From the IMG/VR virus record IMGVR_UViG_3300045988_137753, positions 1-58,009 of that record: a stretch of 58,009 nucleotides of DNA. One strand, given 5' to 3'. The DNA is from a virus. The notes below the pieces were generated by a model. It had not been told where the DNA came from, did not search any database, and worked only from the letters and a program-made list of their open reading frames with translations. Positions 19,840-52,195 of this stretch are shown piece by piece; within the stretch, counting starts at the first letter, position 1, and each line of letters begins with the position of its first letter. The position numbers and the translations under genes were made by a program.

Positions 19840-21888
19840 ATGGCTAACGATACAACCTTAGAAGCGGTAATTAGGCTTAGAGATGAAATCAGTAGGCCTC
19901 TTAATGACATACAAAATGAAATAAGAAATTTAAATAGAATATCTAACGATGCAAATAGTGCTATGAGAGATATACAAAGGGCAACTGGAGACACTGCTGA
20001 TTCAATGAGCGATTTAAGAAGTACAATGGAGGATACAAGTGAATCATTAAGAAATACTAATAATGCTGCAAATGAAGCTGCAAGTGGGATAGAGTCTCTA
20101 GCAACTTTGGAAGCTGGACAAAAGATGATGGAATTTGGAGGAAAAATTATTGATGTAGTTAAAAACTTAATGGAATTAACAGAAGCTACTAAAGAATTTA
20201 ATTCTCTACAAAGCAAATTACAAGGATCAACTAAACAAAATGGATATAAACAGAAAGATGCTAATAAAAATGCTGGACAAGTATATGGATATACTGGTGA
20301 TGATATGATGGCAGTCAATGTTGTTTCCAATTTACAAAAGATGGGGCTATCTCAAAGTGAATTAGATAAAACTATCAATGCTTCGCTAGCAGTATGGAGT
20401 GCATATGGAGATAGTATTCCAATAGAAGGACTTACTGAATCGATTACTGAAACAGCACAAGTTAGTAAAGTTACAGGAAACTTAGCAGATGCTTTGAACT
20501 GGGCTGGAATAAGTGAAGATAGTTTTAATAAGAAATTAGAGGCATGTAAAACTGTATCTGAAAAAAATAAACTTATAACAGATACATTAAATCAAGCATA
20601 CGGAAAAAGTAAAGAAACGTATGATAAAACTAATAAATCCATGATTGATTATAATAAATCTTTATGGGAATCACAAAAGGCACAAGCAGAATTAGGTTCA
20701 GCATTAGCGCCTTTAAATTCAGCAATTAATGGAATTAAATCGGCTTTTGCAGAAGCATTAGCACCAGTTATAAAACAAATTGCGGATGCTATACAACCAG
20801 TAATCCAAAAGTTCCAAGAATTTATAAAAGAACACCCTCAATTAGTAGCAGGTATAACAATGGTAGTAGCAGCTATAACAACACTAATAGGAATTATCGG
20901 AGCTATAATAGTTGTAGTAACAACGGTAAAATTAGCATTTGCTGGTATAAGCGCAGCTATAGGAATTGCATCAGGAGCATTTGCAGCATTAAGCGCCCCA
21001 ATTTTAATAGCTATAGGTGTAATAGCAGCAATTATAGCCATAGGAGTTCTATTATACAAAAACTGGGATACAATTTGCGCAAAAGCTACTGAATTGAAAA
21101 ACTGGGTAGTAGGTAAATGGAATGAGTTAAAAGCAGCAATAGCGCCAATTATTGAATTTATTAAAGCATTAGTTATAAGAAAATGGACTGAGATGAAAGC
21201 TAGTATAACTTTTGTATTAAATATAATAAAAGGAATAGTAATTGTAGCATGGAATGGAATAAAAACAAATATAACTATTGTATTAACTATAATAAAAACA
21301 ATTGTAACTACAGCATGGAATGCTATAAAAACTACTATAACTGTCGTATCAAATACAATCAAGACGGTAGTAACTACAATATGGAATGGAATAAAAACTG
21401 CCATATCAACTATTATATCAACAATTAAATCTATAGTAGTAGAAAAATGGAATGCTATTAAAAATGCTATAAAAAATGCAATGGATGCTATTAAAAATAC
21501 TGCTATAAATGCTTTTAATAATGTAAAAGAAAAAATATCAGGTGTAATTAGTGATATAAAAAGTGCATGGCAAGGATTAAAAGATAAAATCACAAATAAT
21601 CCTATAGTTGCTACAGTTAGAAAGGTTACAGAGTCATTAACTGGAGCAGAAGATGGAAACCATGCAGCAGGACTTCAAAGAGTTCCTTATAATAATTATT
21701 TAGCAAATCTGCATCAAGGAGAAGCAATTTTACCGAGAAGAGATGCTGATAAATGGAGACAAGGCAAAGGTAATACTCCTCAAATAGTCAATAATTTCTA
21801 CGGCATGACGATTAGAGAAGAAGCAGACATAGAAAAAGTGACATCAGGAATAGTCAGAAAACTGAATGAACAAAAAATAATAACTTAG
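19840..21888 (+). CDS. tail tape measure protein
   Basis: 682 aa with a central hydrophobic block and WNxIKxxI tandem repeats; position. Confidence 0.85.
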   Translation: MANDTTLEAVIRLRDEISRPLNDIQNEIRNLNRISNDANSAMRDIQRATGDTADSMSDLRSTMEDTSESLRNTNNAANEAASGIESLATLEAGQKMMEFGGKIIDVVKNLMELTEATKEFNSLQSKLQGSTKQNGYKQKDANKNAGQVYGYTGDDMMAVNVVSNLQKMGLSQSELDKTINASLAVWSAYGDSIPIEGLTESITETAQVSKVTGNLADALNWAGISEDSFNKKLEACKTVSEKNKLITDTLNQAYGKSKETYDKTNKSMIDYNKSLWESQKAQAELGSALAPLNSAINGIKSAFAEALAPVIKQIADAIQPVIQKFQEFIKEHPQLVAGITMVVAAITTLIGIIGAIIVVVTTVKLAFAGISAAIGIASGAFAALSAPILIAIGVIAAIIAIGVLLYKNWDTICAKATELKNWVVGKWNELKAAIAPIIEFIKALVIRKWTEMKASITFVLNIIKGIVIVAWNGIKTNITIVLTIIKTIVTTAWNAIKTTITVVSNTIKTVVTTIWNGIKTAISTIISTIKSIVVEKWNAIKNAIKNAMDAIKNTAINAFNNVKEKISGVISDIKSAWQGLKDKITNNPIVATVRKVTESLTGAEDGNHAAGLQRVPYNNYLANLHQGEAILPRRDADKWRQGKGNTPQIVNNFYGMTIREEADIEKVTSGIVRKLNEQKIIT

Positions 21889-37432: not shown

Positions 37433-38095
37433 TTATTTATCTAATTTGTACCACATACCAGGTATACATCCATCATATATTTCAGATGTATTATTTGTTG
37501 GTACATGGTATATTTTAACTCCTGTTATCTCTATTCTTTCTGTACTTTTTTCTTTTAGGTACAATGTTATTTTTCTAGTTTCTCCAGCTGATATATTTTG
37601 CTCAACACCATTCCATGGTATACAAGTATTGTTTTTATCATACTCTTTAAAATCTATTTCTAAATAATTTATATCATTTCCTGTATTATTAGTCCATGTA
37701 AATTCAAAACTTGGAGAAATTTCATCATCTAGATAAGTTTTTTCTATACTATCAAGTTGTTTAGCTATATATTTTTCAGCTTCTACTTCATTTCCACTAT
37801 AATTTTCAGGTATTTTTAAATTTACACCATTTTGATAATATTTAGCTTCTTCTTCTATTTTCCAGTCGTGGTTATCTAAAAAATTAATCTCATCTTCTGT
37901 TAATAACTTTCTATATGCTTCTGTTAATTCATTTCCTTCTAATCCTTTTAAAGTGGCAATTCTATCTTTTTCAGTCATATGTTTTTCTTCTTTTATAGAG
38001 CTTTCAGCTTTATTCTTATTTATATTATTACTACAACCTACCATACTTACTGCTAATATACTTGCTGCTAATATGCTTGTTATTCTTTTATTCAT
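37433..38095 (-). CDS. lipoprotein (moron)
   Basis: Signal peptide with lipobox AVSMVG-C; RBS AGGGGG 9 nt before the fourth-codon ATG. Confidence 0.7.
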   Translation of the reverse strand: MNKRITSILAASILAVSMVGCSNNINKNKAESSIKEEKHMTEKDRIATLKGLEGNELTEAYRKLLTEDEINFLDNHDWKIEEEAKYYQNGVNLKIPENYSGNEVEAEKYIAKQLDSIEKTYLDDEISPSFEFTWTNNTGNDINYLEIDFKEYDKNNTCIPWNGVEQNISAGETRKITLYLKEKSTERIEITGVKIYHVPTNNTSEIYDGCIPGMWYKLDK

Positions 38096-38470: not shown

Positions 38471-39604
38471 TTAATACTGACTTAAGTTAATTGCTGCATT
38501 TAAGTCTCTATCCATTGTATGTCCACATTCAGGGCAGGTAAATATTCTATCTTTAAGTTTAAGTCTATCTTTGCCTGTTCTTGTATGTCCACATTTACTG
38601 CAAGTTTGTGAACTAGGATACCATCTATCAGCCATTACTAATTCTATGCCATATTCTTGTGTTTTATATTGTAATTGTCTTTGGATTTCAAAAAATCCTT
38701 GTTTGCCTATCGCATCTGATAAATGCTTGTTTTTCATCATTCCTTTTACATTTAAGTCTTCTATTACTATCTTTTGAGGTTTCTTTTCTACTAATTGGTG
38801 TGTCATTGTATGTCTATAATTATTTCTAATATCTCTTATTCTATGTTGCAGTTTTAAGATTTGTTTTTCTAATTTGATTATGTTATTAGTTTTATGATAT
38901 GCTTTCCCTTCTTTATTCATATCATATTTTTTACTTACTTGTCTTTGCAATCTTTTTAATCTCTTCTCTAATTTCTTCATCTCAGCAGTTTTGTTAATAT
39001 TCTTATATACTGTACCATCACTAACTATCGCTAAATCTTTAATACCTAGGTCTACACCTAATACAGTTGGATTTAATTCAGGTTTATAATCTTCTTGTTC
39101 TACTCCTACTGATATGTACCAATGCAATCCATCATATGTCACTCTTGGATTAGAGTATTTTTTTACAATAGGTATATAGTTTTTTCTACTTAATTTGACT
39201 ATTCCTATTTTAGGAAGTTTGACTTGATTTTCAGATATTTTTATAGCTTGATAATGTGGCGCAAAGGCTGGAGTTGTTCTATTTCTGCTCTTAAATCTTG
39301 GGTAGGATTTAGCATTGCCCTTTTTTACTTCTCTGAAAAAGTTCTTAAATGCTGTACAAGCATCTGTATAAGCTATAATTAGTGTCATTGCATCACAATC
39401 TTTAAGCCAGTTATTTTCTTTTTTATAAGCGGTTAAATACTTACTCATCCCCATGGCTGATATGAATTTTTCGCCTTTTTCATATCTTTCCTTTTGAAAG
39501 GCTAATGTCCAGTTATATATATGTCTTGCACATCCTGCTTGAAAAAACATTTGTTGTTCTTGTTGTTTATTAGGTTCTAATCTAACTTTGTATGATTTAA
39601 TCAT
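38471..39604 (-). CDS. tnpB: TnpB-type (IS605 OrfB family) RuvC nuclease, array-associated; candidate miniature type-V-like effector
   Basis: KVRLEPNKQQEQ N-terminus, VLGVDLGIKD (RuvC-I), IVIEDLNVKGM (RuvC-II), CSKCGH..CPECGH zinc ribbon, MDRDLNAAINL (RuvC-III). Confidence 0.9.
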   Translation of the reverse strand: MIKSYKVRLEPNKQQEQQMFFQAGCARHIYNWTLAFQKERYEKGEKFISAMGMSKYLTAYKKENNWLKDCDAMTLIIAYTDACTAFKNFFREVKKGNAKSYPRFKSRNRTTPAFAPHYQAIKISENQVKLPKIGIVKLSRKNYIPIVKKYSNPRVTYDGLHWYISVGVEQEDYKPELNPTVLGVDLGIKDLAIVSDGTVYKNINKTAEMKKLEKRLKRLQRQVSKKYDMNKEGKAYHKTNNIIKLEKQILKLQHRIRDIRNNYRHTMTHQLVEKKPQKIVIEDLNVKGMMKNKHLSDAIGKQGFFEIQRQLQYKTQEYGIELVMADRWYPSSQTCSKCGHTRTGKDRLKLKDRIFTCPECGHTMDRDLNAAINLSQY

Positions 39605-39618
39605 TTCTTTTTCCTCCT

Positions 39619-40018
39619 ATACTTGTTATATTTACATTTGTACGCTTCTAAGTTCGTTAACTATTAACTATGTGGTATGGTTTCAATACTTGTTGCATTG
39701 TATATTACATTTGTACATTCTCTTAGTTCTTCATCTATTTGCTCTTTTCTGACTTCGTTTCAATACTTGCTATATTGTATATTACATTTGTACAGAATTA
39801 TTTGAGTATGATAGCTTAATAGTTAATACAGTGTTTCAATACTTGCTATATTGTATATTACATTTGTACTTCTTGAAGAAATCTTGCTTCTCTCCTGGAA
39901 GATACAGTTTCAATACTTGCTATATTGTATATTGCATTTGTACGCTATAGCTTATAACTGTAATGTTATATTGTCCGCAATGTTTCAATACTTGTTATAT
40001 TGTATATTGCATTTGTAC
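39619..40018 (-). CRISPR. CRISPR-like array: five 37-nt repeats plus one truncated repeat, five unique 36-40 nt spacers
   Basis: Repeats GTTTCAATACTTG(C/T)TATATTGTATATT(A/G)CATTTGTAC at 39680-39716, 39757-39793, 39833-39869, 39907-39943 and 39982-40018. Truncated copy at 39619-39643. On the minus strand the repeat ends ATTGAAAC. Confidence 0.8.
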
Positions 40019-40206
40019 TCGTGCAACTTGCAATGCAGTAATGCCAATAGATATAAGTACTGAATAATAATTGTACTAGTTGATATACAAGTACTTTTTA
40101 TTAAGTTTTCAAGGTATCAACATATATCTGTACTAGTTGGTATTACTACAATATAAGTTACTAGCATTGAAAAATATAATAAATTTCTAATAACAAGATT
40201 GTATTA

Positions 40207-40373
40207 GCACAAGTGCAATATACAATATAACAAGTTTCCCTATTCAACGTATCCTCTTTTGCATAAGCTACTCGAGTTGGTATGATACTCCAAGGGCGTA
40301 AATTCGGGTTTGAACATCCCTACATACCGAAATAATCTTTTAAGTGATTATCTTTCGGTTTTTATTCTTTTGT
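40207..40373 (-). ncRNA. candidate tracrRNA-like RNA (anti-repeat 40207-40235 plus structured scaffold)
   Basis: Plus strand GCACAAGTGCAATATACAATATAACAAGT matches 27 of 29 positions of the reverse complement of repeat positions 9-37. The adjacent roughly 130 nt has stems (GTATC..GATAC, AGGG..CCCT, hairpin 40326-40359). Confidence 0.5.
40326..40370 (+). terminator. hairpin plus T-run (terminator-like on the plus strand; 5' stem-loop of the tracr candidate on the minus strand)
   Basis: ACCGAAATAATC / GATTA(TC)TTTCGGT followed by TTTTATTCTTTT. Confidence 0.45.
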
Positions 40374-40380
40374 TACTATT

Positions 40381-40409
40381 ATAATAACATAGTTCTCCAC
40401 TTTGTACAA
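40381..40409 (-). promoter_or_regulatory. candidate sigma-A promoter driving tracr/array/tnpB on the minus strand
   Basis: Minus strand reads TTGTAC-17 nt-TATTAT (overlapping TATAAT). Confidence 0.3.
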
Positions 40410-40476
40410 CCATTTTTGAAAATTTATTTATTTTTTTTCTTCACTATGATACAATTATCTCAAAGGTGGTGATTTT

Positions 40477-40635
40477 ATGGCTTTGAATGAAAATAAAGAT
40501 AGAATTAATCTTGTTATAGAAAAGGAATATAAAGAACAATTGCAAAAATTAGCAAAAGACAATAGAGTAACCTTATCAAACTTTTGTGCAACTGTACTTG
40601 TGAAATATATAGAAAAAAAGAACCAAGAGAAGTAA
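40477..40635 (+). CDS. ribbon-helix-helix (CopG/Arc-like) DNA-binding protein, 52 aa
   Basis: AAGGTGGTGA RBS; RINLVIEKEYKEQLQKLAKDNRVTLSNFCATVLVKYI fits a beta-alpha-alpha pattern; below the ORF track cutoff. Confidence 0.6.
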   Translation: MALNENKDRINLVIEKEYKEQLQKLAKDNRVTLSNFCATVLVKYIEKKNQEK

Positions 40636-40657: not shown

Positions 40658-40864
40658 TTAGCAATTATAATATTTATTTTCTATATTATTATATCTCTTT
40701 AGAAGAATATCATTTTCTCCCCAAAATCTTGCTTCTACTTGGTCAATATCAACTTTTTCTTTACAAATTTCTCTAAATAGATTAATTGCACTTACATAAT
40801 CAGTCCAACCACTATATAGTTCTAAACCTTCATTATTTATCCAACTAACTTGAAAATTATTCAT
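40658..40864 (-). CDS. hypothetical 68-aa protein
   Basis: ORF in track; start coupled to the stop of the upstream small gene. Confidence 0.45.
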   Translation of the reverse strand: MNNFQVSWINNEGLELYSGWTDYVSAINLFREICKEKVDIDQVEARFWGENDILLKRYNNIENKYYNC

Positions 40865-41011
40865 TTATTTGCCCTCCATGTCTTTTAATATTATATTTAC
40901 AAGTTCTTCCTTTGTAAAAAAATCATCTTCTGGATAATATCCTCTTGCATCATAGAAGTATTCTTTTAACATTTCCATGCTAGTTTTTTCTAACATTTCT
41001 TTCATTTTCAT
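40865..41011 (-). CDS. hypothetical 48-aa protein
   Basis: ATG after AAAGGGGGAT RBS on the minus strand; MKMKEMLEKTSMEMLKEYFYDARGYYPEDDFF... Confidence 0.4.
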   Translation of the reverse strand: MKMKEMLEKTSMEMLKEYFYDARGYYPEDDFFTKEELVNIILKDMEGK

Positions 41012-50220: not shown

Positions 50221-51342
50221 TTACTTTTTAAATAGCATATCTTCCAAATTATCACTTGCTTTTTTATCCATTTCATCAAGTGTATGAGTGTATATATTTA
50301 ATGTGGTCCTTATATCTGAATGCCCTAACCTAGTTGATACTGTCTTTATATCTGTGCCAGCTGCAATTGATAGAGTAGCAGATGAATGCCTTAAATCATA
50401 CATTCTAATCCTTCTTAAATCGTATCTATCGCAAAATCTAGCAAATTGATGAAATAATGTATTCATTTTCCACATTTCCAATCTTGTATTTAAGCATACT
50501 AAATTATACTGATTAAATAAAACACCATCATTTATTAGTCTATTTTGCCTTTCTTTCTCTTTTATCATTTTTTCAATTAAATAATTAGGTACAGTTATTA
50601 TTCTTTTAGAATTCTCTGTTTTAGGATCTTTAAAATAAGAGTTTCCCTCAAGCTCATAAATACTTTTATTAACAAAAATAGTATTTTTTTTGAAATCAAC
50701 ATCATCCCAACTTAATGCCATAGCTTCACCTTTTCTAAGGCCTGCGAGTAACATTAACAATAAAGGTAATTCTAACGCTTTATTTTCTACACATTTAATA
50801 GCTTTTAATGCTTCTTCTTTGGTCCAACTGGTAGCCTTAACCTTGATGTTTTTTTTAGGAACTTTTATAAAATCTGTTATATTTTCACTTATTTCTTTAA
50901 ATCTATAAGCATCTCTTAAAACTACTCTAAGAGAAGCATAGCGAGCTTCCGCACTACTCCCCCCGTGTTCTTTATATATTTTATTTACCCATTGCTGTAA
51001 TTGATATACAGTCACATCATTTAATTTAGTATTCGTAAAAAAAGGCTCTATAGATACCTTTATGATGCTTTTTCTTTTCTTGATAGTATATGGGGATAAA
51101 TTATTAGTATTATCTTCTAAAAATTTATAACATCTATCTACTAATGTTATATCTTTACTTATCACAAAGCTGTTTTTATTAATAGAACTTTTTAGATCAA
51201 TAAGATGTTTATCTGCTTCCTTTTTAGAATCATATTTGCCAACACTTTTTTGTTTTAGTTTCCCTTTTTCATCATAGTATTCAACTATAACATTATAATT
51301 GTTACCTCTCTTACGAATAAATGTGCTTTTTATATTATCCAA
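50221..51342 (-). CDS. int: tyrosine integrase
   Basis: RKGEAMALSWDDVD, MYDLRHSSAT, RLGHSDIRTTLNIYTH catalytic blocks. Confidence 0.9.
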   Translation of the reverse strand: MDNIKSTFIRKRGNNYNVIVEYYDEKGKLKQKSVGKYDSKKEADKHLIDLKSSINKNSFVISKDITLVDRCYKFLEDNTNNLSPYTIKKRKSIIKVSIEPFFTNTKLNDVTVYQLQQWVNKIYKEHGGSSAEARYASLRVVLRDAYRFKEISENITDFIKVPKKNIKVKATSWTKEEALKAIKCVENKALELPLLLMLLAGLRKGEAMALSWDDVDFKKNTIFVNKSIYELEGNSYFKDPKTENSKRIITVPNYLIEKMIKEKERQNRLINDGVLFNQYNLVCLNTRLEMWKMNTLFHQFARFCDRYDLRRIRMYDLRHSSATLSIAAGTDIKTVSTRLGHSDIRTTLNIYTHTLDEMDKKASDNLEDMLFKK

Positions 51343-51807: not shown

Positions 51808-52137
51808 TTATTTGTCTTTTCTTTTTTTTATCATAGTTTGAATCATAGTATCAATTAATTCTTTATTGTCTTCACTTAAATCTGAATACTTTTTATATAA
51901 ACTACTTATTTCATCATATTCTTTATTTAAATATTCATCATCCCCTCTTAATAGAAAATCTATTGTTACATGAAAGTAGTCAGCTATTTTTATTAATGTC
52001 TCGGCATCAGGAAACCTCCTATTTGTTACCCAGTTTGAAACAGATCCACGCTTTACATTTAATGTATCAGCTAAGTCTTTTTGAGTAATACCATTACTTT
52101 TTATTAAAAATTGAAGCCTATCACCAAAGCTAGTCAT
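51808..52137 (-). CDS. CI-like repressor (XRE HTH, no peptidase domain)
   Basis: ITQKDLADTLNVKRGSVSNWVTNRR; GGGAGGTG RBS before the sixth-codon ATG; divergent from the cro-like gene. Confidence 0.7.
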   Translation of the reverse strand: MTSFGDRLQFLIKSNGITQKDLADTLNVKRGSVSNWVTNRRFPDAETLIKIADYFHVTIDFLLRGDDEYLNKEYDEISSLYKKYSDLSEDNKELIDTMIQTMIKKRKDK

Positions 52138-52195
52138 ATCAACACCTCCCATTACTTCAAATATACCATAATTAATAATTATATGAAAGTTATAG

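Follow-up and report, generated by a model that had tools for sequence, protein, structure and literature searches.

A cassette read from the minus strand of the viral record IMGVR_UViG_3300045988_137753 (58,009 nt, referred to here as the window) combines a predicted IS607-type tnpB nuclease gene with a short CRISPR array. The last spacer of this array, S5, carries in inverted orientation part of a repeat resembling the type I-B CRISPR repeat of Clostridioides difficile. The layout is like that of TranC systems: a shared promoter, a RAGATH-18 trans-activating CRISPR RNA (tracrRNA) with an anti-repeat, the array, a truncated repeat joined to a ribosome-binding site (RBS), and tnpB. Related loci are given L-numbers; L012-L014 and L105-L109 have Cas12f-type arrays, and L015-L020, L110-L122 and L125 have TnpB-type arrays. 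In the order of transcription the features of the window are as follows.

40381 to 40408, minus strand: promoter-like site TGTACA-16-TATTAT, TG-extended, found by scan in a flank common to the Cas12f-bearing sister phages
40236 to 40296, minus strand: RAGATH-18 RNA motif (RF03064), predicted body of the tracrRNA (Rfam, 65.3 bits against a gathering score of 44.9)
40199 to 40235, minus strand: anti-repeat of 37 nt directly after RAGATH-18, complementary to the first ~29 nt of the repeats (inverted repeats I1-I5, 85-93%)
40019 to 40198, minus strand: leader between tracr and array, holding two copies of TGTACTAGTTGRTAT
39680 to 40018, minus strand: five full 37-nt direct repeats, GTACAAATGTAATATACAATATAACAAGTATTGAAAC, at 40018-39982, 39943-39907, 39869-39833, 39793-39757 and 39716-39680 (Rfam CRISPR-DR7 matches on the minus strand)
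39981-39944, 39906-39870, 39832-39794 and 39756-39717, minus strand: spacers S1-S4
39644 to 39679, minus strand: spacer S5, the oldest unit, 36 nt, CATACCACATAGTTAATAGTTAAC-GAACTTAGAAGC
39656 to 39679, plus strand: I-B-type repeat fragment GTTAACTATTAACTATGTGGTATG, the last 24 nt of the 36-nt unit
39619 to 39643: truncated terminal repeat, ATACTTGTTATATTTACATTTGTAC on the plus strand and GTACAAATGTAAATATAACAAGTAT on the minus strand, without the 3' handle TGAAAC
39613 to 39618, minus strand: RBS AGGAGG, sitting where the last 6 nt of the repeat would be
38471 to 39604, minus strand: predicted IS607-type TnpB-like RNA-guided nuclease, 377 aa (Pfam HTH_OrfB_IS605, OrfB_IS605, Cas12f1-like_TNB)

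The 377-aa protein matched the ISFba1 TnpB structure over its full length (8iaz_A, E 3e-76). The RuvC Asp/Glu/Asp triad is present with VDLG, IEDL and DRDLNAA conserved, and the effector looks intact. Guide RNAs of IS607-type TnpB proteins (right-end RNAs, reRNAs) derive from RAGATH-18 RNAs (PMC11061315). Relatives at 66-72% identity have RAGATH-18 directly downstream of tnpB, in the canonical single-guide arrangement, while in the window's own clade (at least 88% identity) it lies upstream of tnpB and is followed by the anti-repeat, leader and array. The motif occupies the same position in L015 and L017-L020. One 72%-identical relative, L021 (4001-5725), has tnpB, RAGATH-18 downstream and then a 3-repeat array, a layout that may be intermediate between the single-guide and upstream-array forms. 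No terminator was predicted between the promoter-like site (40408-40381) and tnpB, and the nuclease is therefore probably translated from the array transcript. A plus-strand tracrRNA with a terminator at 40320-40365 was considered and rejected, as RAGATH-18 falls on the minus strand in Rfam, the plus strand gave no terminator call and the logic of the protospacer adjacent motif (PAM) fits minus-strand guides only. Rfam Histone3 matches inside tnpB were sub-threshold and judged spurious.

The repeats are spaced 74-77 nt apart. S5 is 36 nt long, S1-S4 are 37-40 nt and the other spacers of related arrays 35-41 nt. The anti-repeat:repeat duplex was calculated at -31 to -38 kcal/mol, compared to about -9 to -10 kcal/mol for shuffled repeats. 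The two leader copies (40067-40086 and 40124-40143) read ATA(A/T)(T/C)TGTACTAGTTG(A/G)TAT and may be an operator or an acquisition-related motif. When the whole array and 34 pooled spacers were searched against isolated phages, matches were weak, at chance level or lacking. A 79% match of S4 to Clostridium perfringens phage repressor genes was not taken as meaningful, and an 11-nt likeness of S3 to the repeat (TTAACTATTAA) was taken as chance.

The array ends in a degenerate repeat fused to ATAGGAGG, and this was seen in all related TnpB-type arrays (L015-L020, L110-L122, L125), indicating that the joining of terminal repeat and RBS is a design conserved among them. In L115 and L125 the only change in the terminal repeat is TGAAAC to AGGAGG (...AACAAGTAT|AGGAGG). 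The window's copy additionally lacks 6 internal nt of the 37-nt repeat, and the RBS (39618-39613) occupies the place of its final TGAAAC, after which 8 nt separate the RBS from the tnpB ATG (39604-39602). A sequence-only reading of the window had proposed that a truncated repeat abuts or overlaps the nuclease RBS; its coordinates proved exact, with the RBS in place of the repeat's final 6 nt. The terminal repeat keeps part of the tracr-pairing segment, with a residual pairing of -20.7 kcal/mol, only marginally stronger than the best of 200 shuffles (-20.3 kcal/mol). As the 3' handle is lost, the gene's own 5' end would be unusable as a guide. The half still able to pair with the tracr could define where the last CRISPR RNA (crRNA) stops on its 3' side, or permit translational feedback.

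S5 is bordered by the last full repeat (39680-39716) on one side and the truncated one (39619-39643) on the other, and its length is that of a spacer. Its first 24 nt are the reverse complement of a Cas12f/I-B-type repeat, and its last 12 nt, which were not found in the collections searched, would stem from a neighbouring spacer. The same reading had cited a C. difficile I-B direct repeat and counted about 20 of 24 agreeing positions including a contiguous run. The cited consensus, GTTTTATATTAACTA[A/T]GTGGTATGTAAAT, was right: it is present in phages of C. difficile (annotated 'CRISPR-DR14' in CDKM15) as well as on the chromosomes of the species (OX244046.1, for instance, has 20 copies). A literature search for the repeat string found nothing, and the consensus was verified from these sequences. 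A genome scan found the canonical repeat to be essentially limited to C. difficile genomes. The window's 24-mer agrees at 21/24 positions with the T variant (GTTTTATATTAACTATGTGGTATG) and at 20/24 with the A variant, including an 18-nt run. The match to the phage repeat variant GTTAAC... was 24/24.

The exact 24-mer had no match in 596 Gb of contigs (one genome for each of 185,579 species). It was found in 3 IMG/VR contigs and 5 metagenome contigs, always as a CRISPR repeat, GTTAACTATTAACTATGTGGTATGTAAAT, with 36-37-nt spacers. The chance expectation for an exact 24-mer is about 6e-13 per spacer. Coincidental resemblance in AT-rich DNA had been one of three readings proposed at the outset and is favored by the window's 29% GC, but this expectation, together with the exact match to the repeat of syntenic phage arrays despite 0 matches in the 596 Gb, excludes it. 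A complete 29-nt I-B repeat at regular spacing was not found in the window, which holds a single 24-nt fragment lacking TAAAT, and no second copy of the fragment was found in the window at up to 8 mismatches.

Two sister phages, L013 and L014, carry arrays of the exact-24-mer type at the site of the window's cassette. Identity of the flanks between the window and L013/L014 reaches up to 96.5% on the side with the ribbon-helix-helix (RHH) gene and 97.6% on the side with the 99-aa and 223-aa genes. Homology breaks right after the shared -10 box and returns right after the nuclease stop codon; in the alignment it stops right after ...TATTATAATAGTAACAA, and cassette-specific sequence starts just past the -10 box. 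Both cassette types (window 40365-40410 compared to L013/L014) start just past the same -10 box, and their other boundary is the RBS of a common 99-aa gene. Between the homologous flanks the window holds the tracr, the 37-nt-repeat array and tnpB, while the sister phages hold a ~300-nt RNA-like region, the I-B-type array and a gene for a 405-aa protein. This protein matched 9nzp_A (E 2e-133) and CnCas12f1 (8hr5_A, E 2e-127), and by these matches it is a type V-F, CnCas12f-like Cas12f. Its identity to the window's TnpB is 29%. The locus is thus a plug-in slot for alternative RNA-guided nuclease cassettes.

Loci combining Cas12f and an I-B-type array are L014 (2630-3460), L013 (2506-3542), L012 (5100-6300), L091 and L099. 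The last two are loci of metagenome-assembled genomes (MAGs) that have the canonical C. difficile repeat and also place the array directly before Cas12f. A diverged anti-repeat lies ~80-100 nt upstream of the Cas12f-linked array (L014 ~2840-2862). Protospacers of the Cas12f arrays were flanked by CCT, CCA and CCG. The C. difficile I-B PAM is YCN, CCA/CCT (PMC8406132), and co-occurring V-F and I-B systems are reported to share PAMs (bioRxiv 10.1101/2024.04.09.587696), which suggests a phage-borne type V-F system sharing repeats and PAM with the host type I-B system. In these phages the 'I-B repeat' is the repeat of a type V-F array. The check for I-B arrays at this site in syntenic prophages, advised at the outset, found them in the sister phages exactly there; they are not the cas-less mini-arrays that had been envisaged, as they lie directly upstream of the 405-aa Cas12f gene and have their own anti-repeat. 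As a separate observation, the C. perfringens phages phiSM101 (L001, 1455-1575) and vB_CpeS_BG3P (L002) each carry two degenerate I-B-type repeats 19 nt apart, followed by a terminator and beside the lysin gene, with the look of a solitary repeat or mini-array (possibly like an RNA anti-CRISPR, Racr).

These arrays raise the possibility that the 24 nt are a recombination scar of a displaced I-B/Cas12f array with no guide function, another of the three initial readings. Sister phages do hold such arrays exactly at the locus. The window's immediate left flank is 96.5% identical to the Cas12f-bearing phages and about 70% identical to the TnpB-bearing L017 and L019, an incongruence with cassette type indicating that cassettes move between backgrounds. 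A scar could arise by such exchange between the two types, and the terminal unit of L015 is likewise a fragment, of 17 nt. However, the S5 fragment is inverted relative to the syntenic arrays in L012-L014, its distances to the two cassette boundaries are about 700 nt and about 1.2 kb, and it fills a normal 36-nt spacer slot between a full and a terminal repeat. The register of the fragment, described next, also bears on this.

S5 starts at the base right after the only TTTA of the repeat (ATTTA|CATACCAC...), and 5'-(A)TTTA is found at all repeat targets; the background frequency of TTTA is 1.4%. Protospacers of other spacers in the array family, read for minus-strand guides, were found among the related loci.

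L017_S3: window 37436 to 37471, plus strand, in the 223-aa gene; flank TTTTA; 100% match; spacer duplicated (S3/S4)
L017_S8 (terminal): window 39328 to 39364, plus strand, inside tnpB, antisense; flank TTTTA; 2 mismatches
L018_S3: flank TTTTA
L015_S8: flank ATTTA
L120_S4 (spacer 4 of L120-L122): window 40764 to 40799, plus strand; flank CTTTA; 100% match

A (T)TTA 5' flank was therefore present in six independent protospacers of the family, these five and that of S5. Some other target copies were flanked by ATTA, CTTA or TTAA; the PAM may be TTTA, with TTA possible. The two copies of the duplicated L017 spacer lie in tandem (L017 3549-3584 and 3622-3657). Thirteen rival repeat copies match S5 at 20/20 PAM-proximal positions and most others are 1 base off, at guide position 5, 6 or 9.

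A second lineage (L110-L114, TnpB 95% identical) carries its own terminal anti-repeat spacer, CATATCACATAGTTAATAGTTAAC-GGATTCCTCTTC, in the same register as S5. It matches the GTGA repeat variant at 24/24 positions, and the 12-nt tails of the two spacers are unrelated; the closest junction to this second spacer was in L109 (32 nt with 2 mismatches). The guide polymorphism at position 5 (C/T) mirrors the repeat polymorphism GTGG/GTGA. Terminal units of two more lineages also match rival cassettes: that of L015/L016 is a 17-nt remnant matching the anti-repeat/leader region of the Cas12f cassette beside TTTA, and the terminal spacer of L017 matches the rival, window-type tnpB allele. L120/L121 and L122 have three trailer spacers in common and differ at their leader ends. 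Such diversification polarised to the leader end makes the terminal units the oldest. Across L120/L121 compared to L122, and L020 compared to L117, trailer spacers are common and differences lie at the leader end or arise by internal deletions. Judged by these patterns, the TnpB arrays diversify like adaptive arrays without cas1/cas2 in the cassette.

The fragment ends at the one place in the repeat that adjoins TTTA (1 in 29 per strand), and the second lineage shows the same register with another repeat variant and another tail. Both observations speak against a scar, which we consider improbable; the part of that reading that stands is that I-B-type arrays do occupy this site in syntenic phages, while an inverted fragment ~700 nt inside the cassette in a normal spacer slot does not fit. 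Because S5 is inverted relative to the syntenic arrays, deep inside the cassette, in a normal slot and with the right PAM and register, we read it as a spacer, and its status as a genuine guide with the right PAM is well supported by these comparisons.

Cas12f arrays appear to target in the opposite direction. Spacer 4 of L014 has a protospacer in the window (40912 to 40947, plus strand) with a 100% match and a 5' CCT flank, establishing reciprocity against the window phage at the level of sequence. Five Cas12f arrays have a penultimate 47-nt unit (L013 3438-3484; L105 5815-5861; L106, L107, L108) that shares 91-96% identity with the TnpB cassettes' RAGATH-18 tracr gene; the flank is CCG. Its counterparts are in L015 (650-696), L017 and L018, and the window copy (40304-40258) differs at 10 positions. 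Given its odd length and an orientation shared with the TnpB cassette, this unit could be either a spacer or a relic; as a possible relic it would offer a precedent for S5 being a scar as well. A further Cas12f-array spacer, CTTAGTTAATATGAAATC... (L012 5834-5870, L105, L107, L108), matches over its first 18-19 nt, in reverse complement, the first repeat in other Cas12f arrays, with a CCA flank where that repeat has GTGG. The carriers of this spacer have GTAG (CTA) in their own leader-end repeats, which removes the PAM. Taken together, each of the two phage-borne CRISPR systems appears to target the other.

The target of S5 could alternatively be the host. A guide against chromosomal I-B arrays might cripple host immunity or degrade the host genome during lytic growth. 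C. difficile T-variant repeats, present in dozens of copies per genome, provide TTTA and agree with the guide over the 18 PAM-proximal nt, guide positions 19-20 being the only mismatches, and base pairs 15-20 are without protein contact in the ISFba1 TnpB structure (PMC11061315). However, perfect 24/24 matches occur only in phage-borne Cas12f arrays, with the 24-mer in none of the species genomes searched, and no Intestinibacter genome, from the genus in which a close TnpB relative is filed, was among the matches of the I-B repeat scan. A-variant repeats mismatch at seed position 9, and a temperate phage that cuts its host chromosome would be autoimmune. We regard this use of S5 as unlikely, slightly more so than a scar.

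Interference at the RNA level was also considered, in which the S5 crRNA, antisense to the repeat of the rival or host pre-crRNA, would block its processing or tracr pairing, and so resemble RNA anti-CRISPRs in the form of a guide. Over 24 nt the S5 RNA would pair without mismatch to the repeat RNA transcribed towards cas12f, and phage RNA anti-CRISPRs acting by repeat mimicry are known (PMC10651486). Yet Racrs mimic repeats in the sense orientation while S5 is antisense, the steady 5'-TTTA flank across unrelated protospacers points to DNA targeting, and nothing indicates TnpB action on RNA. This makes both the interference and its likeness to RNA anti-CRISPRs very improbable, clearly more so than the use against the host.

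Our favored explanation, to which we assign a probability of about 0.78, is that S5 is a bona fide spacer of a phage-borne TnpB-derived CRISPR system and a guide against rival Cas12f-linked repeats. It corresponds to one branch of the second initial reading, a spacer acquired from an I-B array and directed at rival-prophage loci, which gained from the exact repeat match, the TTTA register and the second independent spacer. Under this explanation the oldest unit of the array would have been captured from a repeat-spacer junction of a rival array. One promoter would drive a tracrRNA composed of the RAGATH-18 scaffold and the anti-repeat, together with the array and tnpB, and each array repeat would pair with the anti-repeat to give a crRNA of the form ...ATTGAAAC plus spacer. 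The 377-aa nuclease would then cut DNA bearing 5'-TTTA followed by the spacer match. For S5 the target would be the repeat GTTAACTATTAACTATGTGGTATG|TAAAT, whose end TAAAT provides the TTTA. As this repeat is present in multi-copy arrays of the sister phages, one guide would strike several sites per rival genome. The likely benefit would be exclusion of co-infecting or resident rival phages, and as the flanks are homologous, cutting may also favor replacement of the rival cassette. The anatomy, the matches, the PAM, the synteny and the reciprocity against the window phage are seen in the sequences, while RNA processing, cleavage and the biological pay-off are inferred.

Several points weigh against this explanation. 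The exact source junction (...GCTTCTAAGTTC|GTTAAC...TAAAT) was not found in Joint Genome Institute (JGI) metagenomes; no spacer ending in GCTTCTAAGTTC was seen among the arrays examined, and a full-length 36/36 source of S5 was not found, the match being 24-25 nt. Targets of S1-S4 were not found in isolated phages or by searching exact 20-22-nt cores against IMG/VR. No cas1/cas2 is present in the TnpB cassette. The last full repeat carries 3 substitutions that weaken its duplex to -31.5 kcal/mol. Studied RAGATH-18 TnpBs use AGGAG or GAGGG as target-adjacent motifs (PMC11061315), and the putative TTTA comes from protospacer flanks. Should the host have I-B arrays of the T variant (18/20 match plus TTTA), a lysogen would suffer autoimmunity from this guide.

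A more far-reaching proposal is that the TnpB-derived CRISPR and the Cas12f CRISPR, two unrelated miniature nuclease cassettes, are mutually targeting alleles, each with guides against the guide-RNA genes of the other (repeats, tracr, nuclease), with array cutting and flank recombination converting the rival in a CRISPR-programmed homing or gene-drive contest. We hold this as tentative. On that proposal the GTGG/GTGA/GTAG repeats and the matching guide variants would record an arms race, which is likewise speculative.

The surrounding ~58 kb is a temperate siphophage/myophage-like genome with genes for terminase, portal, major head protein, holin/endolysin, integrase (50221-51342) and repressor (51808-52152). 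The cassette lies on the minus strand directly past the lysis genes. A 52-aa RHH gene (40477-40635, plus strand) is divergent from the cassette promoter and identical in the Cas12f-bearing sister L014, and its product is a candidate regulator of the cassette slot. A 682-aa open reading frame (19840-21888) contains three 66-nt tandem repeats with 79% matches (window 21204-21398). A near-identity search of the locus against isolated phages gave no match. The portal shares 60% identity with its counterparts in phiCD119 and phiCDHM19, two phages of C. difficile. A MAG recorded as Intestinibacter sp. (P0004/L125) has a TnpB that is 95% identical to the window's and linked to an array of the same type, and Intestinibacter belongs to the Peptostreptococcaceae, the same family as Clostridioides. 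This gives a hint only of a host lineage in the Peptostreptococcaceae, not necessarily C. difficile. The host suggested at the outset therefore holds at the level of the family, and C. difficile itself is not required.

CRISPR arrays are usually the weapon; here the repeat would be a conserved, multi-copy, PAM-bearing target, and such repeat-directed, reciprocal CRISPR targeting appears new. If the favored explanation is true, the minimal TnpB-CRISPR of one phage could disable or destroy any rival with a competing Cas12f array, while the rival aims back at the window phage, and also at the TnpB tracr gene if the 47-nt segment is a spacer. This would be a natural CRISPR-versus-CRISPR conflict between viruses, and repeat polymorphism within arrays could be explained as escape from repeat-directed guides. 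The 1.9-kb cassette would be a tractable system for spacer gain without cas1/cas2, would permit testing whether RNA-guided nucleases drive cassette replacement in phage genomes, and offers a putative short PAM for an ultra-compact 377-aa nuclease.

The rival cassette resembles type V-F CnCas12f1 (8hr5) in having the array directly upstream and CCN-type flanks like the C. difficile I-B PAM. Unlike CnCas12f1 it is carried by phages, as an allele of the TnpB cassette, and is absent from the window. Virus-borne arrays with spacers matching close relatives are known from mini-CRISPR arrays of Sulfolobales viruses (PMC6858448) and from C. difficile prophages (PMC4173771, PMC8406132), with superinfection exclusion as the implied function. 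Those arrays use host Cas proteins and target ordinary viral genes, whereas the window has its own nuclease and the target is a rival CRISPR repeat, tracr or nuclease cassette, in both directions. As in homing by endonucleases or TnpB, a guide matches the other allele of the locus in which it resides, and repair could draw on homologous flanks; unlike homing elements, no conversion event was observed and the guide sits in an array and is not set by the end of the element. Compared to a Racr or solitary repeat unit, the fragment forms a spacer within an array, and its transcript would run antisense to the repeat.

The effector and its RNA are closest to ISFba1 IS607 TnpB (PDB 8iaz; PMC11061315), with a RAGATH-18 RNA, the RuvC triad and a full-length protein match. 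ISFba1-type elements have a single reRNA downstream of tnpB with the guide set by the transposon end, while the window has a split guide, variable spacers and an inferred TTTA. TranCs are TnpB-to-Cas12 intermediates with a split guide, one of which, CauTranC9, is phage-borne (bioRxiv 10.64898/2026.03.27.714800). The window's system shares with them a TnpB-sized nuclease without domain expansion, a tracrRNA from the transposon reRNA plus a crRNA, a short array with 3-8 repeats, each about 37 nt long, a short PAM and the lack of an adaptation module. Like CauTranC9, it is encoded by Caudoviricetes and has spacers matching phages. The match of the window's TnpB to LaTranC (structures 9jfo/9jfq) is weak (E 5e-25, C-terminal part only). 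It differs from TranCs in its RAGATH-18 (IS607 type) scaffold, in having the tracr and array upstream under a promoter common to the alternative cassette, and in an oldest spacer aimed at the repeats of another CRISPR array. The TnpB-linked array is thus of a kind already known, and the finding concerns its last unit.

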